From: a virus
Taxonomy: Duplodnaviria; Heunggongvirae; Uroviricota; Caudoviricetes
Virus record (IMG/VR): IMGVR_UViG_3300045051_000909
Span: 1 to 64,000 of that record
Strand: one strand, 5' to 3'
DNA length: 64,000 nt
The translations under genes were made by a program, and so were the position numbers. Below are positions 23,033-42,631 of the stretch, one piece after another (the first letter of the stretch is position 1; each line of letters begins with the position of its first letter). The notes beneath the pieces were generated by a model that saw nothing but the letters and a program-made list of their open reading frames with translations, did no database searches and was not told the DNA's origin.

Positions 23033-23041
23033 TGCGTGGGT

Positions 23042-24473: not shown

Positions 24474-24652
24474 TTGGTCCTCGTCACGGCACCGACACGA
24501 TTACCGTTGGTGTCCAGTACGACGTGCCCCTCCAGAGACTCAGCATCATCGATACGCTGGGCGAGTGCGCGAAGTATCCGCGCCACTTCGAAAGCGGGCT
24601 TATCCTCAAACGCCGCATTCTCCATGTTGATTACGATCTTCACCTTGCTCAC
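24470..24652 (-). CDS. small hypothetical protein (60 aa)
   Basis: GTG start; ATGA-type coupling to ATP-grasp gene. Confidence 0.4.
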   Translation of the reverse strand: MSKVKIVINMENAAFEDKPAFEVARILRALAQRIDDAESLEGHVVLDTNGNRVGAVTRTK

Positions 24653-24828
24653 GGCGCGAAAACCTCCAGTTCACTCTTCGGAATCGTCCCGTCCTCGACG
24701 TTGACGAGAAGTGCTTCGCGAAGCACTTCAGTTGGCTCATCGTCGTAAACCTGGAACCCGTGCTCGGTCAGGATGTACTCGATGGCGTTACGGGTGAGCT
24801 GGTTGACCCTCTCCTTGGTAGATCTCAT
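24649..24828 (-). CDS. small hypothetical protein (59 aa)
   Basis: GGAGACGGGAGTGG RBS-like; ATGA overlap upstream and GTGA overlap downstream; below track threshold. Confidence 0.4.
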   Translation of the reverse strand: MRSTKERVNQLTRNAIEYILTEHGFQVYDDEPTEVLREALLVNVEDGTIPKSELEVFAP

Positions 24829-25157
24829 CCACTCCCGTCTCCTTCTTGCTGCAAGTGTCGAAGCATCTGTGCTCGCGTATGCGGGCAGCGCTCACTTCTC
24901 AAGATTCTGAATCCCGCGTTCCCTAGCGCTCTCAAGAACGCGTGCGTATGCGCGCTGGTAGTGACCGAGAATTTCTGACTGGTCACCCATGCGATTCGGC
25001 GGTCGTTGTAAGTCCACGCCAACTTCTTAGCTATAGGCTCGGCATACGAGTACGCAGTCTCTTTGCGGTACCACCCGCTACCCGCATGCGCGTACTCACG
25101 ACTGCCGGGTCGTGCAAACTGTTCAGCGACATCGTTGATCTTCTTTCGGCCGCGCAA
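24825..25157 (-). CDS. hypothetical protein (110 aa)
   Basis: minus-strand ORF in operon. Confidence 0.45.
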   Translation of the reverse strand: MRGRKKINDVAEQFARPGSREYAHAGSGWYRKETAYSYAEPIAKKLAWTYNDRRIAWVTSQKFSVTTSAHTHAFLRALGNAGFRILRSERCPHTRAQMLRHLQQEGDGSG

Positions 25158-25223
25158 AAAATTCTCCTACATGAAAGCGGCCCCCGAGCAGTGAACACAG
25201 AACACTCGGAGGCCGCCGATGGC

Positions 25224-25436
25224 CTAGTTGCGGAGCGTTACGCGCTCCAGGCGACGAATTGCAGCTTGCAGTGCACGTCGCGTCTCCGCGTTCTCGCCAC
25301 CGTGCAGGTGTTCGAGTTCGTAGAGGATGCGTAGGCGATTGGGCGGGTATTCCACCAAGTGCAACTTGGGGAAATAGGCATTGAGCAGCTTCTCCTGCTC
25401 AGTCAGCATCGAGGCCTCCGTTTGGTGCGTTCCCAT
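25224..25436 (-). CDS. hypothetical protein (70 aa)
   Basis: directly abuts HicB-like gene. Confidence 0.4.
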   Translation of the reverse strand: MGTHQTEASMLTEQEKLLNAYFPKLHLVEYPPNRLRILYELEHLHGGENAETRRALQAAIRRLERVTLRN

Positions 25437-25661
25437 CTACTTATACCGGGAATCCTCGATACCCTGATGAAGGGTATCGGCGTGCGCCGGGGTGGACATG
25501 ATCGGCACGCCGCACACGGCCATCGCCTCTACGGTGCGTTCGAGCGCCTGGGTGAGTGTCTTTCCCTGGCTCCGGCAGCCCGGGATTTCCTGTACCGACG
25601 TCACCCAGTAATTGCTGCTGTCATCTCCATCGATCACGATGGTGAGTTGTTTCTTTGCCAT
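25437..25661 (-). CDS. HicB-like (UPF0150) antitoxin-fold protein
   Basis: YWVTSVQEIPGCRSQGKTLTQALERTVEAM matches HicB N-terminal RNase-H-like fold pattern; no HicA partner seen. Confidence 0.55.
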   Translation of the reverse strand: MAKKQLTIVIDGDDSSNYWVTSVQEIPGCRSQGKTLTQALERTVEAMAVCGVPIMSTPAHADTLHQGIEDSRYK

Positions 25662-25725
25662 TCCTTCTCCTGTTGGGGTTGAACAAAAGAAGCGGAGCAG
25701 CGCCGAAGCGCTGCCCCGCCGAGAA

Positions 25726-26709
25726 CTACGGGATGTAGTACCGCAGCGGCCCTGGGTAGGTCCCAGCGGCGCCGAGGTCCACGGCGCTTACCACTTCCGG
25801 CGTAGACCCCACCACAGAGTAGCAACCGGCATTCGCCCGATACGTCAGTAGGGCGCTGGGGGTGTACAGCGTCGCCGCACCACTTGCGCTGTAATAGACG
25901 TGTCCGTTCACCACGGCCATGGTGTACGGCGACTCGAGGTACGCGTTACCGGTGCAATTCGAGGCCGTGAAGTACACTTTCATACCGTTCTCGACTGGTG
26001 CCCCGGAGAGCCAACGCTGAACCAAGACGTTGACACCGCCGTGCCGCTCAACGATGGAAATCGTGTTGGCACCGCTGCCGCTCAAGACCGGCCCAATGAT
26101 GTAGCCGGTGGCGTCCTTGGCGTAGGCCACGATACCCGGGGGGCCTTCGATGCCCTGAATGCCCTGAGCACCCGTATCACCCTTCGGCCCCTGGACACCT
26201 TGGAGACCCTGAATGCCCTGGTCGCCTTTGTCACCCTTCAGGCCCTGAGCACCGGTATCGCCCTTCAAGCCTTGGAGACCCTGAGCACCTTGAGCACCGG
26301 TATCGCCCTTCAGACCCTGCGGACCTTGGGCTCCGGTATCGCCCTTGTCACCTTTGTCGCCCTTCAGGCCTTGAGCACCCTGTGCACCCATGTCGCCCTT
26401 CAGGCCTTGCGGGCCTTGAGTACCCTGGAACCCTTGCGGACCTTGGGCACCCGTATCGCCCTTCGGTCCCTGCGGGCCCTGGGTTCCCTGCGCACCGGTG
26501 TCGCCCTTGTCGCCCTTCAGCCCCTGCGGACCTTGCGGGCCCACGTCGCCCTTATCGCCCTTGTCGCCCTGGACACCAGGATCGCCCTTCAGCCCCTGCG
26601 GGCCTTGGGGACCTTGAGGGCCAACCAGCGCGTCGGGGCTAGTAGTGTTGTTAGGCGCCTCATTGGCGCACGCGGTAAGCACCACCAGCATAGCGATAAG
26701 GGTCTTCAT
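25726..26709 (-). CDS. collagen-like (Gly-X-Y) repeat lipoprotein with C-terminal globular domain
   Basis: MKTLIAMLVVLTAC lipobox; ~55 uninterrupted GXY triplets (GPQGPQGLKGDKGD...); ~130-aa non-repetitive C-terminus. Confidence 0.8.
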   Translation of the reverse strand: MKTLIAMLVVLTACANEAPNNTTSPDALVGPQGPQGPQGLKGDPGVQGDKGDKGDVGPQGPQGLKGDKGDTGAQGTQGPQGPKGDTGAQGPQGFQGTQGPQGLKGDMGAQGAQGLKGDKGDKGDTGAQGPQGLKGDTGAQGAQGLQGLKGDTGAQGLKGDKGDQGIQGLQGVQGPKGDTGAQGIQGIEGPPGIVAYAKDATGYIIGPVLSGSGANTISIVERHGGVNVLVQRWLSGAPVENGMKVYFTASNCTGNAYLESPYTMAVVNGHVYYSASGAATLYTPSALLTYRANAGCYSVVGSTPEVVSAVDLGAAGTYPGPLRYYIP

Positions 26710-26737
26710 CGTGGACTCCTAGTTTTGGGTTTACAAC

Positions 26738-26772
26738 TTATACCCAAAAGAAACCGCCCCTTGAGAGGGCGG
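26738..26772 (-). promoter_or_regulatory. terminator-promoter cassette (hairpin then T-run then GGGTATAAG -10-like element on minus strand)
   Basis: CTTATACCCAAAAGAAA + CCGCCCC..GGGCGG hairpin; coordinates +/-2. Confidence 0.5.
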
Positions 26773-26779
26773 CTTCTAG

Positions 26780-27001
26780 TCAGCGCAGTCCCAAACGCTG
26801 TCGCAGCGTGTGGATTTCGTCGCGGAGTTCGAGGATCTTCTTGGCGGGCTTTCCGTTGAACGGCACGATGCGAGGATACCCAACAGCCGTAACGGCACCG
26901 CGCAAACTAGGGAATGCCACGCTAGCCTGCTTGAGCCCCTCGTTTACTGAGTAAACCACGCCCACCTCTCCATCGACTTCGACGAGTTCCTCAGGCAGCA
27001 T
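26780..27001 (-). CDS. small hypothetical protein (73 aa)
   Basis: ORF overlapping start of MazG-like gene by 11 nt. Confidence 0.4.
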   Translation of the reverse strand: MLPEELVEVDGEVGVVYSVNEGLKQASVAFPSLRGAVTAVGYPRIVPFNGKPAKKILELRDEIHTLRQRLGLR

Positions 27002-27338
27002 CGCCGTTCACCTCCACCACGACATAGCGCTTCGTGAACCCGCCCTTCTCCTCACGTTTGCGGTTTGCGCGGTCACGCAACTCCATCCAGCCCATGTCGT
27101 ACATGTCTGCGATGGCGAGAAGCGCCTCAAAGATATCTGTGAGCTCCTCGCGCGCAGGTTCCAAGGGCTTACCGATCCCGGACGCGTCCACGAACTCCTC
27201 AGTCTCTTCCTGCAACTTGCGAATCGCGTACAGCAGAAACTCCTCGTCGTCCTGCACCTTGCGGTAGACGACCGTCTGCCCCGCATTCACCATGATCGCA
27301 GGGATGTTGTCGCGCACCAGCTTATCCAGCTTCTTCAT
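26991..27338 (-). CDS. MazG/HisE-like nucleoside triphosphate pyrophosphohydrolase
   Basis: MKKLDKLVRDNIP...LQEETEEF...ELTDIFEAL: EExxE metal motifs of all-alpha NTP-PPase family. Confidence 0.7.
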   Translation of the reverse strand: MKKLDKLVRDNIPAIMVNAGQTVVYRKVQDDEEFLLYAIRKLQEETEEFVDASGIGKPLEPAREELTDIFEALLAIADMYDMGWMELRDRANRKREEKGGFTKRYVVVEVNGDAA

Positions 27339-27625
27339 GAGGCTCCCGTGTGAGTGGTGTGTGGATGCCTATTGCAGCACCAGGTAGTCTTGTTGTTCTC
27401 CGAGACGAAGAAGTAGAACGAGTAGCGATCAGGGTCGAAGCCCGCGTCGCGCTGGAGCTCGCGCGCGTCCTTCTCGGTAAGCGTCCTGTGAATCAGGAAG
27501 CTCAGCCGATAGTCCTCTGACCGGTCAATAATCAGCGTCACAGGTTTGTGTGGCTGGTTATGGTGAGCAGCGGGAAATTCTCCCGTAGTACGACGTCTAC
27601 GCTGCGGGTTGAAAGGCCGCGGCAT
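27335..27625 (-). CDS. hypothetical protein (96 aa)
   Basis: ATGA-coupled to MazG-like gene; preceded by cassette. Confidence 0.45.
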   Translation of the reverse strand: MPRPFNPQRRRRTTGEFPAAHHNQPHKPVTLIIDRSEDYRLSFLIHRTLTEKDARELQRDAGFDPDRYSFYFFVSENNKTTWCCNRHPHTTHTGAS

Positions 27626-27650
27626 GCGTAAGCCTCCTTTCGGTTACAGG

Positions 27651-27687
27651 CTTATACCCAAAAGAAAGCCCCCACCGAGTGGGAGCT
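27651..27687 (-). promoter_or_regulatory. terminator-promoter cassette
   Basis: GCTTATACCCAAAAGAAAG + hairpin; RBS AAGGAGG follows on minus strand. Confidence 0.5.
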
Positions 27688-27694
27688 TTCGATG

Positions 27695-28180
27695 TTATTG
27701 GGGAACCAATTCGCGCAACCGAGACGCCGCATCCAATGCCCCGAGACGATTGACGAAGCAGACCGCCGCCGCCGACGGATCCTTAACACGCTTGGCCTGC
27801 TTAGCGTATCCCTCGTACTGGTGTGCCATTACGGTCAGGCGATCCGCTGCCAGGTGAACTACCTCTCCGAACACCTTAGGTATGATCTGCAACTCCGGTG
27901 GTTCGAACACCACCGGCCGCAGATGCATATTCGCCAGCCTAGCTGCGATTCTGGTCTCAAGCCGCTCTGCACGCGCGCGGCATCCTGCGGACAGCAAGTT
28001 CAACTGATCCAGCACGTCACGATTCGACAACTGCGTCAGCCACGCTGAATCGATGATGATCTCCACGGTCTTTTCACGTTGCCAGCATACTGCCAACTGT
28101 GCAGTGAACTTCTGTCCGGCGGGATCGTTCTTGCCCGTCCCACCTCCCTCTAGCAATCTCAAGTTGAGATCTGTGGTCAT
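27695..28180 (-). CDS. hypothetical protein (161 aa)
   Basis: minus-strand ORF between two cassettes. Confidence 0.5.
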   Translation of the reverse strand: MTTDLNLRLLEGGGTGKNDPAGQKFTAQLAVCWQREKTVEIIIDSAWLTQLSNRDVLDQLNLLSAGCRARAERLETRIAARLANMHLRPVVFEPPELQIIPKVFGEVVHLAADRLTVMAHQYEGYAKQAKRVKDPSAAAVCFVNRLGALDAASRLRELVPQ

Positions 28181-28250
28181 GCGCCCCGCTCTTCCTTGTT
28201 TTCAGTTACGTGGTTGGTACTGAAAAACCCGGGTTGGTTCGTGTCCGTTT

Positions 28251-28300
28251 GCTTATACCCAAAAGAAAGCGCCGTGGAGGGGACGATGCCCCCACGGCGC
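28251..28300 (-). promoter_or_regulatory. terminator-promoter cassette
   Basis: GCTTATACCCAAAAGAAAGC + GCGCCGTGG..CCACGGCGC hairpin. Confidence 0.5.
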
Positions 28301-28314
28301 CTTCGCGGTTCGTT

Positions 28315-28437
28315 TTACGTCGAACCGCGCCTGAACGTGTAGCCTTCGTCGACGATGTACTTCTTGTACAGCATCCGACCGGCATCGTAGATGCCCATGC
28401 CGACGGCAACCGCAAACGCGGTTTTCCAGAAGCCCAT
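28315..28437 (-). CDS. small membrane protein (40 aa)
   Basis: MGFWKTAFAVAVGMGIY single TM; own cassette up- and downstream; coordinates +/-1. Confidence 0.35.
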   Translation of the reverse strand: MGFWKTAFAVAVGMGIYDAGRMLYKKYIVDEGYTFRRGST

Positions 28438-28478
28438 CGAAGGCCTCCTTGTGAGGGTTGAAGGTTTGGGGTTTGCCA

Positions 28479-28640
28479 CTAGCTGGGCAGCGGCGCTTCC
28501 GGCTCGACGTGGACCGCCACGCGGCGCGGCTTCGAGGCCATCTTGTCCAGCGCCTCAGCACCGGCCATCACGCCCACGATCCCCAGGCCGCCCAGGAAGG
28601 TGCCGACGGTGACGCAGATGATCGTCTTGAACATACCCAT
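28479..28640 (-). CDS. small membrane protein (53 aa)
   Basis: MGMFKTIICVTVGTFLGGLGIVGVMAG single TM; own promoter cassette; coordinates +/-1. Confidence 0.35.
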   Translation of the reverse strand: MGMFKTIICVTVGTFLGGLGIVGVMAGAEALDKMASKPRRVAVHVEPEAPLPS

Positions 28641-28697
28641 GTGTTTTCCTCCAACCCCGGCGGATACGGGGCAAGTTGGTTTTCCGCTTTACTAAAC

Positions 28698-28740
28698 GCT
28701 TATACCCAAAAAAACGGGGGATCCTTGGAAGGACCCCCCG
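28698..28740 (-). promoter_or_regulatory. terminator-promoter cassette
   Basis: GCTTATACCCAAAAAAAC + GGGGGATCC..GGACCCCC hairpin; TTTAGTAAA leader. Confidence 0.5.
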
Positions 28741-28809
28741 CTGGTCAGCGGAACAGCAACTCGTGCACCAGCTCCAACAATTTCAACTGGGCGCGCTGTA
28801 CGAGGCGCT

Positions 28810-29157
28810 TCATGCGCTTGCTCCTCCCGGCGGTGGCAATTGCGTGAGCTGCGGATGGCGCGGCATGGCGTTGCTGTGGAACTTGTTGCGCACCTCCGGG
28901 CCGCAGGTCGCGCACTGCCCGTCGCAGCCGAGCAGCCGGATCTGGAGGGACTTCGCCTCCGTCATGACCCGGTTCTTCGCTGCCACGCTGTTGGTCATGC
29001 TCGTCGCCTCGTCGATGACCGCATCGATGAGCGAGGCCATCTCGAGACTCGTGGCCTTCTTGTCGTTCACCAGCATGTCCGCGATGACCGTGAGCATGAG
29101 GATCTCTTCGGCCAGGAACAGCTGCTTCAGCATCTTCATCGCGTCGTTGTCGGTCAT
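28810..29157 (-). CDS. hypothetical protein (115 aa)
   Basis: AAAGGA RBS; chosen over overlapping alternative frames. Confidence 0.45.
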   Translation of the reverse strand: MTDNDAMKMLKQLFLAEEILMLTVIADMLVNDKKATSLEMASLIDAVIDEATSMTNSVAAKNRVMTEAKSLQIRLLGCDGQCATCGPEVRNKFHSNAMPRHPQLTQLPPPGGASA

Positions 29158-29166
29158 GTCGTCCTT

Positions 29167-29559
29167 TCACATCAGGTTGGGGGTAGCATGCGCTTCGGCT
29201 TCCGCATTGACCCACAGAGCCACCATCTTCCGATGCGTCTCCTCGGGGTCCGCGTCATCCAGCTTTGCGATTGCAACCGCGACATCGCGGTTGTGGCAGA
29301 ACGCCCGGAGGTACGCCTCGAGCATCTCTGCGCGAGCCTTGCTGAAGCGCTGCGTCGGGATGACCCAGGGCAGACCGAGCTGGCGCAGGTACGCCGGCCG
29401 CAGGCCCGCCAGGGTCATCCAGCCCAACATCTCGGCATAGCGCAGCAGCGCGCCGAGGTACCGCTTGTTGAGCAGCGCGAGGGCGATCCCCGCCATCCGC
29501 GTGTAGAGGGCATCCCCGAGCTGCGTGGCCAGAACGACGCGCTTGTTGTTGTGGTTCAT
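29167..29559 (-). CDS. hypothetical protein (130 aa)
   Basis: first gene after cassette at ~29600. Confidence 0.5.
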   Translation of the reverse strand: MNHNNKRVVLATQLGDALYTRMAGIALALLNKRYLGALLRYAEMLGWMTLAGLRPAYLRQLGLPWVIPTQRFSKARAEMLEAYLRAFCHNRDVAVAIAKLDDADPEETHRKMVALWVNAEAEAHATPNLM

Positions 29560-29593
29560 TTTTGGAGCTCCGAGGTTTTCGGGTTTACTAGAA

Positions 29594-29633
29594 GCTCATA
29601 CCCAAAAAGAAGCGCCGGCTTCGAATAGCCGGC
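29594..29633 (-). promoter_or_regulatory. terminator-promoter cassette (variant GGGTATGAGC)
   Basis: GGGTTTACTAGAAGCTCATACCCAAAAAGAAGC + GCCGGCT..AGCCGGC hairpin. Confidence 0.5.
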
Positions 29634-29640
29634 ACTCCTT

Positions 29641-29822
29641 CTAGCGGGTAACGAGGCGGAGCGCGTTACCCCGAGTGAAGGTACGGGGCGTCGGTGGTGG
29701 CGGGGGTCGCTTTGGGCGGTCATTGCGGACGTAGCCCTTGCGATTAGCCTCACGCGCCTTAGCCTTACGGTGGCCACGCCATTCGTAGACGCGCCACTCG
29801 TAATCGGGCAGGTAGATCACGC
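29641..29822 (-). CDS. small basic protein (start at GTG ~29822)
   Basis: GGAGG RBS 7 nt upstream of GTG; Arg/Lys/Pro-rich. Confidence 0.35.
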
Positions 29823-30068
29823 GCGAACCTCCGAGGACAGCATCGGAACCCAGGTGCACGCCTGCATCATCCAATCATCCGCCGCGCGCTGCCACGCCAG
29901 GCCCATGTTCAGCGAGTAGTTGGCGTCCAGCAATCGCCCCCACTTCTCGTAAGCCGCCGCAGCCTCGAGCGAGCGGTCAGAGTAGGAGGCGCAACGGAAC
30001 GCGGCTTCAATCGCGTCCGCGAAGCTTTCCAGGGCGTACTGCTCGGACAAGTAGTAGTCGATACTCAT
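29817..30068 (-). CDS. hypothetical protein (83 aa)
   Basis: first gene after cassette at ~30110. Confidence 0.45.
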   Translation of the reverse strand: MSIDYYLSEQYALESFADAIEAAFRCASYSDRSLEAAAAYEKWGRLLDANYSLNMGLAWQRAADDWMMQACTWVPMLSSEVRA

Positions 30069-30106
30069 GGAGGTCGGCCTCCCGCAAAGGTTTGGGTTTA
30101 CTAGAA

Positions 30107-30150
30107 GCTAATACCAAAAAAAGCAGCGCCCCCAGGATTGGGAGCGCTGC
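30107..30150 (-). promoter_or_regulatory. terminator-promoter cassette (variant TGGTATTAGC)
   Basis: GGGTTTACTAGAAGCTAATACCAAAAAAAGC + GCAGCGC..GCGCTGC hairpin. Confidence 0.5.
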
Positions 30151-30181
30151 CACATTCGCGGTGAGGATTGGCCGCAAATGT

Positions 30182-30685
30182 TCATGCCTTCGCGTGTGCC
30201 TCGGTGTGGCAGTGGTCGCAGTTCCCGTCGCAGTCCTTGTCCTCGTCCTCGCCGCCCGGCTGCATCTTCTTGAGCAGCTCCACGAACGGGTTCTTCTCCC
30301 GGGGCAGCGTCAGGTACAGCTTCTCGAGCGCGTTGCAGGCGTCGACCGGATCCGGCAAGTTCGCGAACGTCTCGGCCTGCTTGCCGATCTCCTTGGCTTC
30401 CTCGCCCGTCTTGAGGCCCTTGACCACCGCCGCCGTGAGAGCCTCGGTGATGTTCAGGTGCATCAGCGAGGACAGCGTCTTGCCCAGCGCGGGCTCGAGC
30501 GCGGCCATCGCCTCTTCGTACTTGTACTCCTTGGCCAGCGGGATCGCGATCTCGATGGCGCTGTCGTAGAGCTTCTGCGCGTTGTCGGGTTCGATGATCT
30601 TGCGCTCGATGCCTTCGCTGAGCATCTGCTGGAGGAACTCCACGCTGAGCTGCGTCTGGATTCCAGCGAGTCGGGTGATGCGCAT
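30182..30685 (-). CDS. hypothetical protein with C-terminal CDGNCDHCHTEAH metal-binding tail (start at MRITRL)
   Basis: TAATG coupling with upstream gene. Confidence 0.5.
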   Translation of the reverse strand: MRITRLAGIQTQLSVEFLQQMLSEGIERKIIEPDNAQKLYDSAIEIAIPLAKEYKYEEAMAALEPALGKTLSSLMHLNITEALTAAVVKGLKTGEEAKEIGKQAETFANLPDPVDACNALEKLYLTLPREKNPFVELLKKMQPGGEDEDKDCDGNCDHCHTEAHAKA

Positions 30686-31107
30686 TACGACCTCCTCTTC
30701 TTCTTGGTGGTAGCAGCGGGTTTGGTATTGCTCTTGGTGGTGGTGAACAACTGAACGTCGCCCTTCTCGAAGGGCTGGAAGTTGCCCGTGCGGCACTGAA
30801 TCACCTTCTTCCAGCCATTCATCTTCATGTTGGCGATGAGACTTTCCGCAGTAGGCATTTTCTTCTCGACGTCCTTGAGCGTCATCACCTGGCCGTCGAT
30901 GAAGTACATCTTGTCGCTGTACATGGGCTGCCCATGCAGGGTCTCGCGTGCGATCTTCCGCTCGTTGCGCTTCCAGAATCGGAACGCGAAGGCCTCGCGA
31001 GGCGCTTTCTTCAACGCCACCTCGGGGTCGGGCTTGGCGATGGCCTTGTCCTCTCGTTCAGAGAAGAAGGCCCCGGGGATCAGGTACTCCACGTAGTGCT
31101 TGATCAT
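30685..31107 (-). CDS. hypothetical protein (140 aa)
   Basis: minus-strand ORF coupled both sides. Confidence 0.5.
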   Translation of the reverse strand: MIKHYVEYLIPGAFFSEREDKAIAKPDPEVALKKAPREAFAFRFWKRNERKIARETLHGQPMYSDKMYFIDGQVMTLKDVEKKMPTAESLIANMKMNGWKKVIQCRTGNFQPFEKGDVQLFTTTKSNTKPAATTKKKRRS

Positions 31108-31110
31108 CTA

Positions 31111-31857
31111 TTAGATCTCGTAGTTGGGTACTCCCAGGCACCGTTCGATGATCCGGAAGTACTCGATGAACTTCTCCTTCGACCAGGCGTGCACGCCCAG
31201 GCCGCCCGTCGTGTCGTAGAACGTCACGTCGTCCTTCTTTGTCACTGCGTCGAGCTCCGGGCACTCGAACGGCGGTGAGCACGACACCTCGATGACATCG
31301 ACCCGTTTGCGTGGGCCCACGACCACCTTGGCCCCGTGCAGTGTGAACTTGTACCACGGCTCGAGCTCAGAGCCGCTGTAGCGATTCTTGATGGGCGTGT
31401 ACTCCTCGATCCCCAGCTCAGCCAGCAGCTCGGACCAGTACTTCTTGTGCCGCGTGAGGATCGGATCCTCAGGCGCTTGTACGTGCTTCGTGTTCTCTGC
31501 GTTGTACGGGCCCTCCCACTCATCGTCCGCGCGCTTGATGTACCCCACCACACCCAGGGGCAGGGCGGGCGGCGTCGGCGTGATCGGACGCGACATGTCC
31601 TTGTTCGCGTGCTTGTCCCAGGTCAGGCGCCACTGAGCCATCATCGGGCCGTTGACCCAGCGCTCGACGGCCAGCGTAGCGTCCTTCATGTGGAAGAGCG
31701 CCAGCGGGCCGCAGCCGTATCCGGTGAGGATCCAGACGGGCTGGCCGCAGCGACCACACACGAACGACTCGTGGCTGAACGACGCGCTCAGCGTCCCGCC
31801 ACCGAATCTCCACTTCTTTGCACCACAGATGCACGGCATCACATCTTCGGGCAGCAT
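31111..31857 (-). CDS. Cys-rich hypothetical protein (start at MLPEDV)
   Basis: GGAGG RBS 4 nt before ATG; GGGTATAAGCGGG promoter upstream. Confidence 0.5.
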   Translation of the reverse strand: MLPEDVMPCICGAKKWRFGGGTLSASFSHESFVCGRCGQPVWILTGYGCGPLALFHMKDATLAVERWVNGPMMAQWRLTWDKHANKDMSRPITPTPPALPLGVVGYIKRADDEWEGPYNAENTKHVQAPEDPILTRHKKYWSELLAELGIEEYTPIKNRYSGSELEPWYKFTLHGAKVVVGPRKRVDVIEVSCSPPFECPELDAVTKKDDVTFYDTTGGLGVHAWSKEKFIEYFRIIERCLGVPNYEI

Positions 31858-31890
31858 GCCACCTCCACAAAGGTTTGGGTTCACTGCCCG

Positions 31891-31935
31891 CTTATACCCG
31901 AAAAAAGGCTGTGCTCCCGGAGTGGGAGCAAAGCC
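31891..31935 (-). promoter_or_regulatory. terminator-promoter cassette
   Basis: GCTTATACCCGAAAAAAGGC + GCTCCC..GGGAGC hairpin. Confidence 0.5.
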
Positions 31936-31936
31936 A

Positions 31937-32161
31937 TCACTGGATACGGTGATCCAGTAGCAGAGCGATCTGCTTCTGCGAGCCCTGCTTGAACATCACG
32001 CTGCCCGTGTCGATCAGCTCCTGGAGCTCTTTGGTGCTCAGCTCTGGGCCCATGATCATCGTCGTCTGCCCAGCATTGAACTCGAATTGCCAGGTGACTC
32101 GCTGCGCCCGCAGATGTTTCAGTGACGCGTAGTACCGCACCTTCAGGGTGTGCAGGATCAT
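31937..32161 (-). CDS. small hypothetical protein (74 aa)
   Basis: ORF ends at cassette. Confidence 0.4.
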   Translation of the reverse strand: MILHTLKVRYYASLKHLRAQRVTWQFEFNAGQTTMIMGPELSTKELQELIDTGSVMFKQGSQKQIALLLDHRIQ

Positions 32162-32418
32162 CGCAGCCTCCGCAGCATCATTTTGAATAGCCGCTCAGCG
32201 CGTCGACACACGTCAGCACATGCGCGTTCAGGCGTCTTGTAGACGCGGGTCTCTTCGATCACCGTATCCGAGCTGATCGCGATGTACCCGGACCACAATC
32301 CCTTGGCGGGTGTTACCACCAGGAATATTTCCGACTTCTCATCAAAGTCGTAGGTGTAGAAGTCATCCAGCAGTGTCCAGTTCTTCAGCAACCGCGCGCT
32401 ACCTTTGTTAGCAGGCAC
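32158..32418 (-). CDS. hypothetical protein (86 aa)
   Basis: ATGA-coupled. Confidence 0.45.
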   Translation of the reverse strand: MPANKGSARLLKNWTLLDDFYTYDFDEKSEIFLVVTPAKGLWSGYIAISSDTVIEETRVYKTPERACADVCRRAERLFKMMLRRLR

Positions 32419-32421
32419 GTA

Positions 32422-32904
32422 TTACCGCCACCCCTTCCGACGCAGTTCCGCGTCCAGTATCTCCATCATCTGCTGGAGGTGCTCCGCTTGATTCCGGATC
32501 GTGTTCAGCAGCATCACGTCGCGCGGCTCGCTCTCTGAGCTCCCCTCCAACGCCTGCGCGGCGTACATCATCGTCTCCGCCAGGTGTGCGACGTACTGCA
32601 CCAGAGCTTCCCGCAACCGAACCTCAACTTCGGCATGGCGGCTATGCACGGGCACCCCCGGCCCGATCACCCGATGCCACGCGGCCACCATGGCAGTGCT
32701 CATGCCTGCGCCGAAGCACCAGCCGATGTTGCCCTGAGCCACAGCCTCAGCGGCTACGCCATCCATTCCCTGTAGCCGCATGAACTCGAGATATCCCAGA
32801 TAGAAAGCCCTGGCATCATTCTCGGTTGTTATCAACATCACGGCGTCTGTTAAAACACCGTTGCCCTTTTCATAGAGCGTCTTCGTGTAGAATTCGAGGC
32901 TCAC
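32422..32904 (-). CDS. hypothetical protein (160 aa), first gene of minus arm
   Basis: preceded by GGGTATAAGTC promoter-like element at ~32920. Confidence 0.5.
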   Translation of the reverse strand: MSLEFYTKTLYEKGNGVLTDAVMLITTENDARAFYLGYLEFMRLQGMDGVAAEAVAQGNIGWCFGAGMSTAMVAAWHRVIGPGVPVHSRHAEVEVRLREALVQYVAHLAETMMYAAQALEGSSESEPRDVMLLNTIRNQAEHLQQMMEILDAELRRKGWR

Positions 32905-33127
32905 TGTCGACGTCCTTTCTTTATTTCGTTGTGAGCTAATAGTTCCAGCTTCCTCTATAGACTTATACCCTACCCCGCCATACAGGCACGGATGGCTTTA
33001 ACGGCCGTTAGGGCGCTTTTGGCCCCCGGGCCCTGGCCTAGTGTTGGTTGGGGTAGCTCCGCGCGTCCTGGCCTCAATACGGCCTTTATAGCGGGGTTTC
33101 TAAATAGATCGGGGATACGATGAAACG

Positions 33128-33285
33128 TCGTTTCACCGACTCGCTGTTTCGCCGAGTCTTTCGATCAGTCAAAGCTTGTGTGTATGCTGTACGGTGTAAC
33201 GTGGTGTTTAGACTCGCCGTTTCGCCGACTCGCTGATTCCCCGAAACCTTAGAATACGCAACAGTGGTTGTTTCGCTGATTCGTA
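33128..33285. repeat. iteron-like direct repeats (core GTTTCGCCGACTCGCTG, 4-5 copies)
   Basis: GTTTCACCGACTCGCTGTTTCGCCGAGTC ... GACTCGCCGTTTCGCCGACTCGCTGATTC ... GTTTCGCTGATTCG. Confidence 0.55.
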
Positions 33286-33460
33286 TACTGTGACAGCCAC
33301 CGCCTCTAAGACAGCTACGTATACTGATCCTAAAGGCTACACGTACCCCTGTATCTCTATACATACGATAACGTTACATATATACGCATATGCCCCTTAT
33401 ATTCCCCGCGCCCCCGGGCACATCATTACGCGCGCGCGGCTACACGCTTCTAAAACTGCG

Positions 33461-33474
33461 TGTCAAATTTGACA
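33461..33474. promoter_or_regulatory. perfect 14-bp palindrome TGTCAAATTTGACA (operator candidate), with TGTCAAA half-site repeated 20 nt downstream
   Basis: exact inverted repeat in non-coding region. Confidence 0.5.
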
Positions 33475-33843
33475 CACCCATTTGGACAAAATGTCAAACA
33501 TACGTATGTACGAGACTGAGGGGTATGTGGAAAAGGTACTTTAGATTGCTCGCGCGCGCATAGATCCTAGGTTTCCCGGTAACGCATCTGTACACATGAG
33601 CATGTGCTGAGATCCCTAAGAACAATAACGCATTGGGTTGAGGGGGGCAGGTCGCCCTCATCAGATCAGACTCGTTTGAATAGCCGCTTAGTGACCCAAT
33701 AAAACCTGGGGTGGCTCATTCACTAACCACCGGTTCCGTGCGTAAATTCGACGGGGCTAAGAATACTGATCTCCGCAAATAACGTGTTCCATACTCTATT
33801 CACAACGGCGGCGGGGAGGCGGCGCAACCCCGTAGTCATTGCT

Positions 33844-33871
33844 TGACGTTACGGCGTAAACGGGGTATGTC
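33844..33871 (+). promoter_or_regulatory. sigma70-like promoter for rightward arm (-35 TTGACG, 16-nt spacer, -10 TATGTC), overlapped by GTTACGGCGTAAA inverted repeat
   Basis: positioned ~30 nt upstream of AGGAG RBS and ATG at 33899. Confidence 0.45.
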
Positions 33872-33898
33872 CTGGTCAACTTCTCGATAGGAGCAGAT

Positions 33899-35830
33899 AT
33901 GCTAAGTACCTGGCTAAAGGACCTGCATCGCCTCGCTACCGCCACCAACGCCCCCTTCCCCGTCTACGACACCACGCGCGCATGTATCAGCGAGCACGGA
34001 CTGGCGTACTACGTCCTCCCCAGGAAGCGGCGTCTCGAGGACTCCCTGTGGTTCGACGGAACGTTGTACGCCCAGCAGCGCCGGCTCGCCGCTGTCAACG
34101 CAGGGCTCGAGCCACCGCACTGGAACAGCGAGGATGTGCTGCTGCTCATCCATTGGCCGCATCTGCTATGGACGGCGAGGCCACACAGCCGCTCTCCGAT
34201 GAAGCCGATGGCTCATCGTCTCCTGCGGGCGCTGAAGCCGTTGATCCTGCAATACGACGCCGCCCTGGTGACGATGCTCGAGCGTTACGAAACTGACTGG
34301 GCCAAGAACGTCAAGGAGCACCAGGGAGATCTGGGCTACTTCGGGCAGCGAGACGAGGCGGACGGGGAGATCTTTACTGCGCATTTGCAAAGCCTCCTCG
34401 CCAACAAGAGCTTCAAGCAGCACCTCGCAGCCACCATGCGGCAGAGCACACGCATCGTCACTGCCGATCATGTGCAGCACACCTTGGGTCGCTGCCCCAG
34501 CGGAGCGACGCATCGTAAAGGCCAGGATTGCGGCGCCTGCAAGGACTTGCGCTGGGTGCGGGCCAACACCAGCGTCCTCTGGCCCGGCAAGCTCAACGAG
34601 GTCAAGAGCGGCATGGCCGAGCTCCAATTCGATAAGCCCGACCTCTGGCCGGAGGGGATTACTAATCCCTGGCTGCTGGAGCTGCGCCATTGGGTTTCTC
34701 TGTGCAGTGAGCAGGAAGGCGTGGCGCGCACTGAATACCCGGGATACGGCGAGGCGTTGCTCGTGGATTTCGGCAAGCTCATCGAAACGGCGAAGCGCTA
34801 CGACCGCGAAATGCCGTTGACGAAGTTCTTCGATGTCACCGCCCCCGCCGATTTCTGGACGCCTGGCTGCCGTGCCCGCGCCGCTTTCCACGAGGTTACC
34901 AAGGGCGAGTTCCTGGCGCGTCGCCCCAAGCCACTCAAGGATCTCGTGGAGTCGGTGGGGTGGCGCTGGGAAGAGTCCTTGGAGACGCCGTATGAATTGA
35001 TCTCCCTGTTCGCCATCGCGGGCAAGTTCGCTGGCGTCAAGAAGACCGCCAAGTCCCTTTCTTTGGCTTGGCGCAGCCGCAAGATCACGGAGCCCCGCAA
35101 GCTTCCCCCGAAGCTGGTGACGCTGACCTACGCCGACGCCGGAGGACGGCAGTTTTATATCCAGGCGGCGAGGCGGCGCTTCATCGACATCAAAGGCACA
35201 CTGGCTGAAGGCCAGCGTGCCTTTGCCTGCTTTACCACGCCGTTCCCCGTGGGCGGTGAGGAAACGAAGTACAAGTATCGCAAGCGCAAGGCCTTCAAGA
35301 TCAACGGTGTCCTGTTCTGGACGGTGCGCGGTCTCAACATGCTGGCCAGTGTGCGTTGGCAGCACAACATCAAGAATCCTGAGAATGGTGAGGTAATGCA
35401 CAAGGAAGGCGAGCCCAAATACCCCTGGGCCGAGGCTTTCCGAGACTGGGCGGATATCGAGGAGTCGAAGCTGACGTTGGAGCGCTTCCGTGAGTTGCGC
35501 TATGAGGCCAAGTACGGAGAGCGGCTTTTGCGGTATCAGAAGGGTCGAGCCAAACACATTGGCCCGTTCACTAATCAGGAGGACAACACGCTGCGAGAGT
35601 TCTTTCTTTTGCGTGCGCCAGGTTCGCACCGCATCGCCAAGGAGGAGTGGAATCAGATCCTGCCGCTGCTTCCTGGGCGTTCGCAGAAGTCGATCATTCG
35701 CCGGCTCGAGGAGCTAGGCAAACAATACGCACGGGAGCACGGCTGGGCCGCTTACTGCGACTCGGGGCTATGCGTGCGGCGTTCGCACCTGCGCAAACAA
35801 CGTTGGATCAAGGAAGGGATTGCGCTATGA
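33899..35830 (+). CDS. large early protein (643 aa) with C-terminal Myb/SANT-like DNA-binding domain
   Basis: AGGAG RBS; C-terminus FTNQEDNTLREFF...WNQILPLLPGRSQKSIIRRLEEL has Myb-repeat W/F spacing; mirror ORF 34166..35629(-) rejected. Confidence 0.65.
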   Translation: MLSTWLKDLHRLATATNAPFPVYDTTRACISEHGLAYYVLPRKRRLEDSLWFDGTLYAQQRRLAAVNAGLEPPHWNSEDVLLLIHWPHLLWTARPHSRSPMKPMAHRLLRALKPLILQYDAALVTMLERYETDWAKNVKEHQGDLGYFGQRDEADGEIFTAHLQSLLANKSFKQHLAATMRQSTRIVTADHVQHTLGRCPSGATHRKGQDCGACKDLRWVRANTSVLWPGKLNEVKSGMAELQFDKPDLWPEGITNPWLLELRHWVSLCSEQEGVARTEYPGYGEALLVDFGKLIETAKRYDREMPLTKFFDVTAPADFWTPGCRARAAFHEVTKGEFLARRPKPLKDLVESVGWRWEESLETPYELISLFAIAGKFAGVKKTAKSLSLAWRSRKITEPRKLPPKLVTLTYADAGGRQFYIQAARRRFIDIKGTLAEGQRAFACFTTPFPVGGEETKYKYRKRKAFKINGVLFWTVRGLNMLASVRWQHNIKNPENGEVMHKEGEPKYPWAEAFRDWADIEESKLTLERFRELRYEAKYGERLLRYQKGRAKHIGPFTNQEDNTLREFFLLRAPGSHRIAKEEWNQILPLLPGRSQKSIIRRLEELGKQYAREHGWAAYCDSGLCVRRSHLRKQRWIKEGIAL

Positions 35831-36546
35831 GTCGCAAGGAGGCTAAGCGGCTAAGAGCCTCGCGGCAGTATAACGAAAAGGCGGCGCAGGGTCTTTGTCG
35901 AAATGAGGGATGTCACAATCCTGTGACACCAGGAAAGGTACGTTGTGCGCCGTGTCTCGAACACTACAATAAGCTTCGACAAGAGCGGCGAGTACGCAAC
36001 CGCGAAATTAGTTTGTGCATCGATTGTGGTAATCCCTCAAGCGGATATTCGAGATGTGAAGTATGTCGTTCGGGCGCCCGGCGTATCGATAATAAGCTGT
36101 ACCGCATCAGCTGTGAAGCAGGTACTTGTGTAACTTGTGGCCGCCCCGCGGCCCCAAATCTTCGAAGTTGTTTGGTTCATTGGTTTAGCGGTATTGCCAA
36201 GTCTCAGCAGTATCGCGGAGCTGATCTCGGTTCGCTTTCAGGAACGGAAATTCGTGCACTGTTTGAATTACAGCAAGGGCGTTGTGCATACACGGGGACT
36301 CCACTGCGTATCGGAGGCCGTGCGTGGAACAGTGCTTCACTGGACCACAAACTCCCAATCAGTCAAGGAGGCACGAACAGCATCGACAACTTGCACTGGG
36401 TCGCGTGGTGTATAAACGGTCTCAAAGGCACGTTATCAGACAGCGAATTCCAAGAGACGTTTGATGCACCCACACTTTCGCGATTTATAATCGTCTTAGC
36501 TAAGAAAGAAAAGCATGACCAAATCCCAGGAAACAGCGCTGCGTAA
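35827..36546 (+). CDS. HNH endonuclease with N-terminal tandem CxxC zinc-finger repeats
   Basis: RCAYTG...DHKLPISQGGTNSIDNLHWVAWCIN = HNH core; four Cx2C..Cx2C pairs upstream; ATGA-coupled. Confidence 0.75.
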   Translation: MSRKEAKRLRASRQYNEKAAQGLCRNEGCHNPVTPGKVRCAPCLEHYNKLRQERRVRNREISLCIDCGNPSSGYSRCEVCRSGARRIDNKLYRISCEAGTCVTCGRPAAPNLRSCLVHWFSGIAKSQQYRGADLGSLSGTEIRALFELQQGRCAYTGTPLRIGGRAWNSASLDHKLPISQGGTNSIDNLHWVAWCINGLKGTLSDSEFQETFDAPTLSRFIIVLAKKEKHDQIPGNSAA

Positions 36547-39172: not shown

Positions 39173-39589
39173 ATGCGTATCCTAATCCTCGACGACGACA
39201 AAGATCGCCACGACGGCTTCGCCGAGCTGTACGCCAACGACGAGCGCGTCCACGTCTACACCGCAGAGCATGCCGCCCAGGCCCTGGACTCTCAGGACTT
39301 CGACGCCGTCTACCTCGACCACGATCTCAACGGGACAGCGTACGCGCCGAGCTCGACCGAGAGCGGCTACGCTGCGGCAGTGCACATCACTCACATGGCG
39401 CCAGAGCGCCGTCCCAAGAAGGTATTCGTCCACAGCTGGAATCCGCCTGGTGCCTACAACATGGTGCGCGTACTGCGCCGTGCCGGCGTAGACGTCGTCT
39501 ACAAGCCCTACTGGATCGGCTACGAAACAGCGGCAGAGGGCTGCGAAGAAGCATTCCACACCTGGGAAAAGATGCACGGTAAAGCCTGA
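39173..39589 (+). CDS. stand-alone receiver (REC/CheY-like) domain protein
   Basis: MRILILDDD acidic pocket, ..DAVYLDHDL phospho-acceptor region, conserved downstream S/T and K-like positions. Confidence 0.5.
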   Translation: MRILILDDDKDRHDGFAELYANDERVHVYTAEHAAQALDSQDFDAVYLDHDLNGTAYAPSSTESGYAAAVHITHMAPERRPKKVFVHSWNPPGAYNMVRVLRRAGVDVVYKPYWIGYETAAEGCEEAFHTWEKMHGKA

Positions 39590-39590
39590 G

Positions 39591-39887
39591 ATGCCGCCTG
39601 ACGCCATCGTAAAGATTCTTACCAGCAACGGCGTAAAGACCGCGCTGATGGCCGATCCACGTAAAGATGACTTCGTCTGGCACGGCGGGACGTTGCTGCG
39701 CGTAGTCCAAATCAACGAAATTGCATTCTTGGCCTGCTGCGTTTTAGCGGATTCGCCAGTGCCAGAAGCTACTTGGTTTGCTTTTGAGAGTCTGACCATC
39801 GCCACCTGCAAGCACTGCCACCAAGCCCACACAGATCACGCTGATAATGAGAAATGCCTATTCGAACCAACGAATTGGGCCATTTGA
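39591..39887 (+). CDS. zinc-knuckle family paralog 1 (CKHCHQAHTDHADNEKCLFEPTNW)
   Basis: C-terminal C-x2-C-x6-H-x5-C-LF-xPT motif. Confidence 0.6.
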   Translation: MPPDAIVKILTSNGVKTALMADPRKDDFVWHGGTLLRVVQINEIAFLACCVLADSPVPEATWFAFESLTIATCKHCHQAHTDHADNEKCLFEPTNWAI

Positions 39888-40232: not shown

Positions 40233-40428
40233 CACGATTGAGCGTTGGGCGACGCCGCAACAAATTGATACGATCATCAGCGGCACCAAGGCAGAGGGGG
40301 AGCATACATGGTACGTATTGAAAGCTGCTTGGGCGATCTGCAAGCACTGCAAGCAGCCTCGGCGAGACCACGCTGACAATGAGAAGTGTCTCTACGAACC
40401 GACGAGCTTTGAGCCTGAGATCACATGA
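40198..40428 (+). CDS. zinc-knuckle family paralog 3 (CKHCKQPRRDHADNEKCLYEPTSF); start uncertain
   Basis: only in-frame ATG overlaps paralog 2 by 35 nt. Confidence 0.45.
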   Translation: MSQPPSKPSNADTIERWATPQQIDTIISGTKAEGEHTWYVLKAAWAICKHCKQPRRDHADNEKCLYEPTSFEPEIT

Positions 40429-41611: not shown

Positions 41612-41955
41612 AATTCCACAAGAAGCCCATCTACAACGATCTGCCCAAGTACTTCAACGGCAAACCTGCGGAGTCGTTCACCGCCGCCCAGATTCGTATC
41701 CATTCGCTGGTGGTGGCGCTCACCATGTCATCCGTACAGTGGGCAACCACGAAGCATTACGAACGCATGACTCAGCAGTACCAGCACGATGACTCCTATC
41801 GTTGGTGGCTCGACCGCTTCACCGAGAGCGCGAGCTACGAGGTCTGGAATCGGGTCTTCGAGGTAACGCGGGCAGGGCAGTACGGCAGCAACGACCGCGA
41901 GGCCGAGAAGAAGGCCAATGCGGCGAAACAGCAATTCGACGCAGCAGTGGTGTAA
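41608..41955 (+). CDS. hypothetical protein (GTG start)
   Basis: GTGA overlap with upstream stop. Confidence 0.45.
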   Translation: MKFHKKPIYNDLPKYFNGKPAESFTAAQIRIHSLVVALTMSSVQWATTKHYERMTQQYQHDDSYRWWLDRFTESASYEVWNRVFEVTRAGQYGSNDREAEKKANAAKQQFDAAVV

Positions 41956-41964
41956 TGCCGCAGA

Positions 41965-41998
41965 GAAGGCGCCCTCCCACAGGGCGCTTTCTTTTTGG
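41965..41998 (+). terminator. terminator, left copy of identical 34-bp repeat GAAGGCGCCCTCCCACAGGGCGCTTTCTTTTTGG
   Basis: GGCGCCCT..AGGGCGC hairpin + T-run. Confidence 0.6.
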
Positions 41999-42064
41999 CC
42001 TACAGATGAACGCTTCCTTGGTATGAGGATGAGCAGCAACGATCACGTTTACTCGAAAGGACCC

Positions 42065-42591: not shown

Positions 42592-42631
42592 GAAGGCGCC
42601 CTCCCACAGGGCGCTTTCTTTTTGGTATGAG
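42592..42631 (+). promoter_or_regulatory. terminator-promoter cassette, right copy of 34-bp repeat (then TGGTATGAG)
   Basis: sequence identical to 41965-41998. Confidence 0.6.

Follow-up and report, generated by a model that had tools for sequence, protein, structure and literature searches.

A conserved non-coding hub where the gene arms of an uncultured contractile-tail phage diverge: promoters, binding sites and a possible replication origin

Iterons adjoining an AT-rich tract (rich in adenine and thymine) are the classic signature of a replication origin, and arrangements of this kind provide the background for the locus described here, an approximately 1-kb non-coding region at positions 32905-33898 (hereafter the hub) of a 64-kb stretch of viral DNA (the window; positions 1 to 64,000 of the IMG/VR record IMGVR_UViG_3300045051_000909). 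In the SV40 core origin and in herpes simplex oriL, an AT-rich core with mirror-image sites lies between divergent promoters, and the first gene on one side encodes an autoregulating, site-specific binder; these origins measure 60-150 bp and are bound by an initiator-helicase. To our knowledge, such dyad-symmetric, initiator-coupled origin logic of the SV40/herpesvirus type has not been described for tailed phages. The T4 origins oriF and oriG combine a phage promoter with an easily melted AT-rich element beside it, and the transcript may prime replication by an R-loop; these origins are short and lie in or next to genes. The Ceduovirus c2-type ori regions occupy non-coding gaps between divergent modules and support plasmid replication; they are flanked by promoters, contain neither open reading frames (ORFs) nor ribosome-binding sites, and belong to subgroup sequence types that are unrelated while their position is conserved; the c2 ori depends on a non-coding transcript from PE1 and not on any phage protein (PMC7150918). 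The origin of the Vibrio satellite PLE is a 2.7-kb repeat-bearing non-coding region between divergent operons that supports plasmid replication, and in its RepA_N iterons, inverted repeats converge on a poly-A tract (PMC7145576). The lambda ori is located inside gene O (PMC6022878), and the iss of phage T5 is a repeat-rich, 1.66-kb non-coding region (located in the terminal repeat near a genome end) with eight paired DnaA boxes (bioRxiv 10.1101/866236).

The sequence of the hub and of its relatives supports its interpretation as a conserved, non-coding, cis-acting locus at which leftward and rightward gene arms diverge. It is a phage cis-acting region of a known sort, found in a metagenome-only family and coupled to a protein of novel fold. 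Tentatively, and at somewhat short of even confidence, the hub is read as a set of divergent promoters and operators that doubles as a replication origin and is bound by the protein encoded next to it. The promoter and binding-site hub, which is the core of this reading, is well supported; the origin function and the identity of the binder we infer from sequence. The hub and its two flanking genes are organized as follows (window coordinates):

32422..32904, minus strand: first gene of the leftward arm, 160 amino acids (aa), without a confident family
32905..33898, no strand: the whole non-coding hub between the divergent arms; ORF-free, no gene call on an independent contig, no shared peptide
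32962-32970, minus strand: GGGTATAAG, recurrent -10-like phage promoter element, strict motif, 58 nucleotides (nt) from the leftward gene start
32972..33097, no strand: GC-rich dyad block (rich in guanine and cytosine), arms ACCCCGCCATACAGGC / GCCTTTATAGCGGGGT forming inverted repeat I2
33118..33290, plus strand: iteron block, GTTTCRCYGA(C/G/T)TC copies at 33130, 33146, 33219 and 33270
33340..33405, no strand: AT-rich tract, candidate DNA-unwinding or upstream element, counterpart of the CCCCCCTATCTATCTATCTA... G-less tracts of relatives
33340-33348, minus strand: GGGTACGTG, mirror of GGGTATGTG and other arm of inverted repeat I3
33422..33440, no strand: left CG box (ATCATTACGCGCGCGCGGC), in inverted pairing with 33546-33565 (I5/I7)
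33460..33498, no strand: operator cluster, with palindrome GTGTCAAATTTGACAC (33460-33475), box CACACCCA (33473-33480) and a second site TTGGACAAAATGTCAAA (33482-33498)
33521..33529, plus strand: GGGTATGTG, weak promoter-motif variant facing right, arm of inverted repeat I3
33546..33565, no strand: right CG box (TTGCTCGCGCGCGCATAGAT), inverted partner of the left CG box, 112-114 nt away
33638..33657, no strand: G-run block GTTGAGGGGGGCAGGTCGCC, counterpart of GGGGGGACTAGG in relatives
33843..33893, plus strand: candidate promoter and ribosome-binding site of the rightward gene (TTGACG 33843-33848, 17 nt, (GGG)TATGTC 33866-33871, AGGAG 33889-33893)
33899..35830, plus strand: conserved first gene of the rightward arm, 643 aa, always adjoining the gap

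Like the Ceduovirus c2 ori, the hub is non-coding, lies between divergent modules and is promoter-flanked, with a strict motif on the left and a variant only on the right. The c2 ori is much shorter, whereas the hubs of this family measure 0.5-1.3 kb and contain iterons and CG boxes, to which giant palindromes are added in relatives; moreover, a predicted DNA-binding protein always adjoins the hub, and the hub has no near-identity DNA match in 50,697 phage records (megablast only). As in iteron-type origins (lambda ori, PLE, iteron plasmids), the direct repeats of the hub adjoin an AT-rich tract that is followed by a palindrome, and a candidate binder is encoded next door; unlike in these origins, the iteron spacing is irregular and the adjacent 643-aa protein falls into no initiator family. 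The hub lies in a gap and not within a gene as the lambda ori does, and its TTGAC-AAAAT-GTCAA sites resemble the converging RepA_N iterons of PLE. The SV40 and herpes simplex origins find a parallel in three relatives (L008, L010, L023) with concentric palindromes of 560-690 bp; unlike those systems, the 643-aa protein has no detected ATPase domain, and the window has lost, or never had, the large symmetry. Similar to T4 oriF and oriG, the hub places a phage-specific promoter near an AT-rich element, and G-runs and C-runs flank the AT-rich tract in relatives; the T4 origins, in contrast, lack iterons and operators. The hub differs from the T5 iss in lying mid-contig between divergent arms, without an array of DnaA boxes.

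The gene content of the window suggests a large, uncultured, contractile-tail phage as its source; the predicted proteins include a sheath-like tail protein, a baseplate hub resembling T4 gp5 and proteins of the collagen-like, SPFH, VWA and AAA kinds, besides a great number of small ORFans, and the 50,697 phage records contain nothing closely related to the window. From approximately 13.5 to 32.9 kb the genes run mostly leftward, and from 33.9 kb mostly rightward, with the hub exactly at the divergence; its GC content is 0.51, compared to 0.59 for the window (~59% GC). The initial annotation had singled out this region as the only sizeable non-coding stretch in the window, and it is indeed exceptional: positions 32998-33846 (849 nt) form the longest part without any stop-free frame of at least 300 nt in six frames, the next longest such part measuring 385 nt. 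This second stretch (window 57122-57506) opens with a terminator that precedes TTTCTTTGGTCTACG. When genes were called independently on a Logan contig of 46.8 kb, which represents the same phage as the window, an identical 995-nt gap was left. Eight relatives were available with genomic context (L008, L010, L018/L019, L020, L021, L023, L025 and L026), so that nine gaps, including that of the window, were compared. The layout is kept in all nine: a leftward gene, a gap of 475-1323 nt, and then the gene for a 590-650 aa protein, which combines a zinc-binding motif with a Myb-like domain and opens the rightward arm; a six-frame comparison of the nine gaps yielded no conserved peptide. Since every locus has a gap at this place and no peptide is common to the gaps, position and non-coding nature are family traits. 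The relatives are distant, as their adjacent proteins share 23-45% identity with the window protein, and the GC content computed for the related loci ranges from 47 to 66%; in the longest related contig (179 kb), the region lies mid-contig.

Short boxes within these gaps are conserved far beyond expectation. In a k-mer count over the nine gaps, with orientation kept relative to the gene and dinucleotide shuffles as background, the following boxes recurred:

box CTTATACC: 6 of 9 gaps, 0 expected in shuffles
box TACGCGCGC (CG box): 5 of 9 gaps, 0 expected in shuffles
box TAGCGGGGT: 4 of 9 gaps, 0 expected in shuffles
box CGCTGATTCG: 3 of 9 gaps, 0.03 expected in shuffles

The arrangement of the elements is conserved as well; the order of iterons, AT-rich tract and palindromic operators recurs in relatives, and the fuller order of iterons, AT-rich tract, CG box, operators and CG box is common to the window and L010.

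Promoter function is indicated most clearly at the left edge of the hub. The pattern GGGTATRWD has 16 matches in the window (1.7 expected), 11 of which are exact copies of GGGTATAAG; nine of these 11 are found on the minus strand between 17.9 and 33 kb, and most copies stand directly behind a terminator hairpin and T-run, 20-30 nt ahead of a start codon. Outside this leftward run (17935-32970, minus strand), GGGTATAAG also occurs at 60195-60203 (plus strand) and 61798-61806 (minus strand). The motif is repeated, co-oriented with the genes, in relatives (L008, L013, L021), and CTTATACC, the reverse complement of GGTATAAG, occupies the same place as window 32962-32970 in six of the nine related gaps. 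Its recurrence after terminators and before genes, together with the repeats in relatives, therefore identifies GGGTATAAG as a phage promoter element, apparently of a -10-only class peculiar to this phage family; the leftward arm has its first promoter in the copy at 32962-32970. In the rightward arm, a related element, TTGGTATCA, follows terminators at 47361-47369, 51770-51778 and 53562-53570 (all plus strand), with variants at window 39937, 42018 and 42622; the pattern suggests that GGGTATAAG and TTGGTATCA represent two related promoter classes, one per arm. Back-to-back motifs of the CTTATACC / GGGTATAAG type at other changes of gene direction (window 20461-20480 and 60180-60203) look like small divergent promoter pairs.

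The right edge of the hub is less clear-cut, and the gene at 33899-35830 is preceded only by the promoter variant GGGTATGTC. A sigma70-like promoter, TTGACG-16-TATGTC, had been proposed here; the two hexamers exist, but the spacer measures 17 nt, and a sigma-70 consensus scan of window 32700-34100 returned no site. In its -10 part, this proposed promoter rather resembles a variant form of the phage's GGGTAT... motif, which stands 27 nt from the ATG of the rightward gene, a spacing that matches the leftward promoters. The candidate promoter is overlapped by the arm ACGTTACGGCGTA (33846-33858), which pairs with 33190-33202. Within the hub, TTGACA boxes were considered as -35 elements and rejected, as no -10-like hexamer lies 16-18 nt away in the window or in L008, and a terminator scan of the region found no terminator-like site. 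A loosened version of the promoter motif was not enriched (30 observed vs. 24 in shuffles), and for this reason the right-facing variant GGGTATGTG is only a candidate promoter.

The left half of the hub contains the direct repeats and the AT-rich tract. Four to five direct repeats (33128-33285) had been counted initially; four copies of an 11-nt core, GTTTCGCCGAC, are present at no more than two mismatches, all on the plus strand, where ~0.06 would be expected in 150 nt (based on 26.5 chance matches per 64 kb), but the full 17-mer iteron occurs only twice (33130-33146 and 33219-33235), and the initial count was overstated. CGCTGATTC occurs at 33230 and 33274, and partial inverted iteron copies at 33118-33127 and 33241-33247. 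Duplicated CGTATACTG boxes are likewise present, at 33282 and 33318; a scan listed two further exact 9-mer pairs, and since by our own estimate ~2 such pairs are expected by chance in 1 kb, this duplication is at chance level and not significant by itself. Repeats of GTTTCGCCGAC are also found in L010 (5306, 5397, 5405 and 5895), and L010 and the window have GTTTCGCC repeats in common; CGCTGATTCG occurs in the window, L008 and L020 and is tandemly repeated in the relatives, and other iteron sets consist of GCTGATTCGCTGACCCGCTGGG, twice in L020, and GCTGTTCCG, ~6 times in L026. The exact iteron had six matches in IMG/VR, all of them unrelated chance ones.

The AT-rich tract noted initially at ~33340-33420 is borne out by the base composition: at 65% AT, positions 33344-33403, ~55 nt from the last iteron, share the top rank for AT content among all 60-nt windows of the 64 kb, and of the four highest-ranking ones three lie in the hub (33344-33403, 33451-33510 and 32913-32972). 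In relatives, CCTAGTCCCCCCTATCTATCTATCTA followed by a G-less AT-rich tract of 60-70 nt is found to the left of the CG box, and window 33340-33405 is a degenerate version of this combination. L008, L010 and L021 have their longest G-less tracts at the corresponding position; in most related loci the most AT-rich or longest G-less tracts are found in the equivalent gap. In relatives, GGGGGGACTAGG mirrors the C-run that opens the AT-rich tract, and I3 of L008 consists of CCTAGTCCCCCCTATCTA / TAGGTGGGGGGGACTAGG; the 18-mer of the G-run block is found likewise in L010. The GC-rich dyad block on the other side of the iterons encloses the palindrome TAACGGCCGTTA (32999-33010) and GGCCCCCGGGCC between its arms, ends in the conserved box TAGCGGGGT (33089-33097), and includes GCCCCCGGGCC, which also occurs in L008. 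The box CCCCCTATCTATCTATCTA followed by an AT-rich tract was also seen in an intergenic region of an apparently unrelated IMG/VR phage contig (L014 2842-2859, L015 2412-2429), where the genes are co-directional.

Palindromes and inverted pairs occur in the central part of the hub. The perfect palindrome reported at 33461-33474, with a half-site repeat, extends to 16 nt (GTGTCAAATTTGACAC, 33460-33475), and TGTCAAA recurs at 33492-33498; three of the four TGTCAAA copies of the window lie within 38 nt at the operator cluster. A single perfect palindrome of 16 nt is not rare (5 in the window vs. 1.25 in shuffles), and GTGTCAAATTTGACAC is meaningful because it is conserved in relatives, not because of rarity. 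Other perfect palindromes of the window are GAAGTGCTTCGCGAAGCACTTC (22 nt, 24708-24729) and one of 18 nt (9130-9147). Operators of the form TTGAC-ATTTT-GTCAA are found in three of the nine gaps (window, L008 and L026): L008 has CTTTGACATTTTGTCAAAG at the equivalent place (9659-9677), and L026 has TTGACATTTTGTCAA twice (984-998 and 1169-1181). In L010, sites of the CCAAAATGG type take their place. The operator arms thus vary between phages and the A-tract spacer is constant (GAC-AAAAT-GTC vs. CCA-AAAT-GG), as would be expected if a dimeric, sequence-specific binder had evolved together with its site. The CG box TACGCGCGC, at 33427-33438 and 33551-33562 in the window, usually forms an inverted pair around ~90-115 nt; such pairs carry phage-specific arm extensions in L008 (34 nt), L018 (35 nt) and L020 (52 nt), and within each locus both TACGCGCGC and TACGCGCG are almost exclusive to the gap. 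In three relatives, several separate inverted-repeat segments share one exact common centre and form ungapped, imperfect palindromes of 560-690 bp (contig coordinates):

L008: giant palindrome, centre 9678.5, span ~9403-9954
L010: giant palindrome, centre 5671.0, span 5329-6013
L023: giant palindrome, centre 1806.0, span 1488-2124

The palindrome of L010 combines 102-nt arms at 83% identity with perfect 21-nt outer arms, and the start codon marks the exact end of the outer right arm both in L010 (5993-6013, ATG 6013) and in L023 (2104-2124, ATG 2125). The longer inverted repeats of the window (I3, I5 and I6) are not concentric. Since three relatives have the large symmetry and the window is without it, the symmetry is frequent in the family and not obligatory.

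The 643-aa protein encoded next to the hub belongs to a family that is known only from metagenomes. It had no match by tblastn against the 50,697 phage records, and no relatives emerged when metagenome contigs and GTDB genomes were scanned for protein patterns; a word-indexed search retrieved one cluster of relatives only, and when it was repeated with a profile of 24 sequences, no proteins beyond the same two came up. An exhaustive HMMER profile search found 56 representatives among 1.84 billion proteins, nearly all of 590-650 aa. A Cys-His-Cys-Cys motif (C199, H205, C211 and C214) is predicted to bind zinc; C199, C211 and C214 are invariant and H205 is nearly so among the 24 closest full-length members. 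The C-terminus carries a Myb/homeodomain-like three-helix domain (~555-620), with E561 and R594 invariant in a 49-sequence alignment. With this alignment, AlphaFold modelled the protein at a pLDDT (predicted local distance difference test) score of 94.4, compared to 39.7 with two sequences; a Foldseek search with the model returned no match in PDB (best E 0.65) or BFVD (best E 0.23), and only the Myb/homeodomain-type domain of the model is recognizable. The most fitting description of the protein is that of a sequence-specific DNA binder with a novel architecture, and it is the obvious candidate for binding the conserved boxes of the hub. The gene directly after it (window 35827-36546) encodes an HNH endonuclease (PHROG endonuclease VII, with weak matches to Cas9 HNH domains), which may be a mobile insertion, since it is absent from that position in L008.

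Taken as promoter, operator region and origin in one, the hub could work as follows. The 643-aa protein, perhaps with a second, dimeric binder, would occupy the iterons, the CG boxes and the TTGAC-N-GTCAA operators; binding would set the divergent transcription of both arms, including that of the protein's own gene, and would melt the adjoining AT-rich tract, so that replication would start in the hub and proceed in both directions, co-oriented with transcription. In the three relatives with a 560-690 bp dyad, this symmetry would provide two mirror-image loading sites. A bolder generalization, which we regard as unlikely, is that the family replicates from a single dyad-symmetric, initiator-coupled origin between divergent arms, organized by an undescribed origin-binding protein of 590-650 aa, with zinc-binding motif and Myb-like domain in an otherwise novel fold, that also autoregulates the flanking promoters.

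The features expected of an iteron origin are present in part: the hub has at least three clustered direct repeats and an adjacent AT-rich element, and an initiator of a known family was not found nearby. Further observations weigh against an origin. The 643-aa protein matched no initiator family (RepA, RepA_N, lambda O-like or DnaA-like) in Pfam, NCBIfam and PHROGs, where only the Myb-like domain was matched, and no ATPase, helicase, primase or recombinase signature was detected in it. No recognizable replication gene was found within ~30 kb on either side among the ORFs scanned. The iterons are spaced irregularly, at 16, 73 and 51 nt. A search for DnaA boxes (TTWTNCACA) revealed no conserved array; one consensus box occurs in the window (33526-33534, minus strand) and none in the eight related gaps. 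About its palindrome centre, the window shows 24% complementarity over 350-nt arms, which is the random level, and thus lacks the large dyad of its relatives. The cumulative GC-skew minimum, to which the initial annotation had looked for a check, lies at 33-34 kb and coincides with the coding-strand switch; since the third-codon-position skew of plus-strand genes is the same on both sides (-0.113 to the left and -0.096 to the right of the hub, from crude gene calls), the minimum reflects this switch, and the check is uninformative and lends no independent support. Finally, every feature of the hub is also compatible with a purely transcriptional role. The initial suggestion of a replication origin or genetic switch named the right class of explanation, as the hub is a conserved non-coding cis-acting locus at the divergence of the arms whose order recurs in relatives; origin and switch are inseparable by sequence alone.

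A purely transcriptional hub, with no role in replication, is the alternative to be considered most closely; we regard it as nearly as probable as the combined reading. The hub would then be a genetic switch or early promoter region, with palindromes as operators, iteron-like repeats as activator or repressor sites and the AT-rich tract as an upstream element, and the inverted repeats of relatives would be duplicated promoter and leader modules facing outward. Such a region would explain the promoter, the operators and the adjacent regulator equally well: a strict phage promoter stands at the left edge, GGGTAT variants face outward at 33340-33348 (minus strand), 33521 and 33863 (both plus strand), and both arms of the 102-nt inverted repeat of L010 carry outward GGTAT-type motifs, as read from the sequence. 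Operators with variable arms and a fixed A-tract spacer look like sites of dimeric regulators, the neighbouring gene encodes a predicted DNA-binding protein without detected enzymatic motifs, and both arms consist of small ORFans typical of early regions, with no replication genes found nearby. Of the features of a lambda-like switch, operator-like palindromes are present and no cI/Cro-type helix-turn-helix gene is adjacent, for which the Myb-like protein could serve instead. The size of the hub, its iterons and its AT-rich tract are explained less well: ~0.5-1.3 kb with at least five conserved boxes and a dyad of up to 690 bp greatly exceed the ~40 nt of the phage's other promoters, the combination of AT-rich and iteron architecture is that of a classic origin, the loosened promoter motif is not enriched, and no canonical sigma-70 promoter was detected. 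It is improbable that the region acts instead through RNA, either as structured non-coding RNA(s) or as a long regulatory leader of the gene at 33899-35830, with the inverted repeats as RNA stems. Translation would be gated in L010 and L023, whose outer right arms stop precisely at the start codon: there the outermost arm, from ~600-640 nt upstream, pairs with the start-codon or ribosome-binding region; the arm sequences differ between phages while complementarity is kept within each, the minus strand of 33415-33575 folds somewhat better than shuffles (z = -2.58), and a non-coding transcript is what drives the c2-type ori (PMC7150918). Yet the window had no Rfam 15 match at gathering score, and 32800-34000 had none when E values up to 1 were admitted; the plus strand folds no better than shuffles (z = -0.93), five relatives yield no consensus fold (-3.1 kcal/mol, in a poor alignment), and the mismatches of the long arms show no consistent strand bias of G-U vs. 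A-C (12:5 in L008, 4:7 in L010); the region contains no terminator-like site, and the window is without long arms. As neither Rfam, the folds, the alignment fold nor the mismatch bias gave anything decisive, an RNA function has little support.

Two further explanations treat the hub as a structural DNA element. That it is a DNA-handling signal, whether a packaging (pac/cos) site, a physical genome end or an injection-stop signal like the T5 iss, is very unlikely. Several metagenomic contigs end in or near the region (L007 at window 33579, L009 at 32872, and L017, L024 and L027), but the contigs that break there are short (2.9-7 kb), and a contig end within 1 kb is to be expected because short contigs were retrieved through the adjacent gene; as signs of physical termini or of inversion, these ends were therefore rejected as a sampling effect. 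Longer contigs span the region, among them the 46.8-kb contig of the same phage, one of 25 kb and the 179-kb contig with the region at mid-length; no terminase was found adjacent, the window has no direct terminal repeat signature, and paired DnaA boxes are absent. A terminus, packaging or iss-like role thus has superficial support, and the packaging terminus of the initial annotation is unsupported. Still less probable, to the point of being hardly credible, is a selfish or structural palindromic element, for instance a protelomerase target, a promoter segment capable of inversion, or an insertion flanked by terminal inverted repeats in the manner of a miniature inverted-repeat transposable element. 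In L010, a 685-bp unit is bounded by perfect terminal inverted repeats of 21 nt, and L023 has 21-nt arms at 95%; the CGCGCG-centred palindromes recall telomere-resolution sites, of which telRL of phage N15 is an example. However, the internal order of boxes is conserved in phages with and without long arms, each locus has one copy, no dispersed copies occur in the window, a single orientation was observed, and L010 shows no target-site duplication on reading its sequence. Searches of the neighbouring genes detected no recombinase, transposase or protelomerase domain; a protelomerase domain or fold is likewise missing from the 643-aa protein, the palindrome centres of relatives are imperfect or asymmetric, and that of L010 is not symmetric.

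Other features of the window concern the arms on both sides of the hub. Accessory genes near the hub encode a collagen-repeat protein with internal repeats (25726-26709), an R2K ATP-grasp protein (23637-24473) and a cREC_REC receiver-domain protein (39173-39589); the R2K ATP-grasp gene has 71% DNA identity to L008. A dispersed repeat of ~60-75 nt occurs at window 39797-39873, 40338-40405, 42861-42935, 45912-45986 and 54106-54153 and in L008 at 18728-18790 and 19202-19266; it encodes the C-terminal C..C..DHADN.KC motif of paralogous small proteins of the rightward arm and is conserved in L008 too. A perfect direct repeat of 34 nt (41965-41998 and 42592-42625) flanks the gene at 41918-42589.

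Hardly any origins or master control regions have been mapped in large uncultured phages, and the hub presents a concrete target of ~1 kb with named boxes, together with a candidate cognate protein that has a confident model, no structural relatives and a family known from metagenomes only. The giant palindromes of some members and their loss in the window amount to a natural experiment on the need for symmetry. If the hub serves as an origin, it would provide a minimal replicon for a phage group without cultured members, along with a new DNA-binding architecture; if it serves as a switch only, it would define the promoter code of the family (GGGTATAAG, with TTGGTATCA after terminators) and a central regulatory node.

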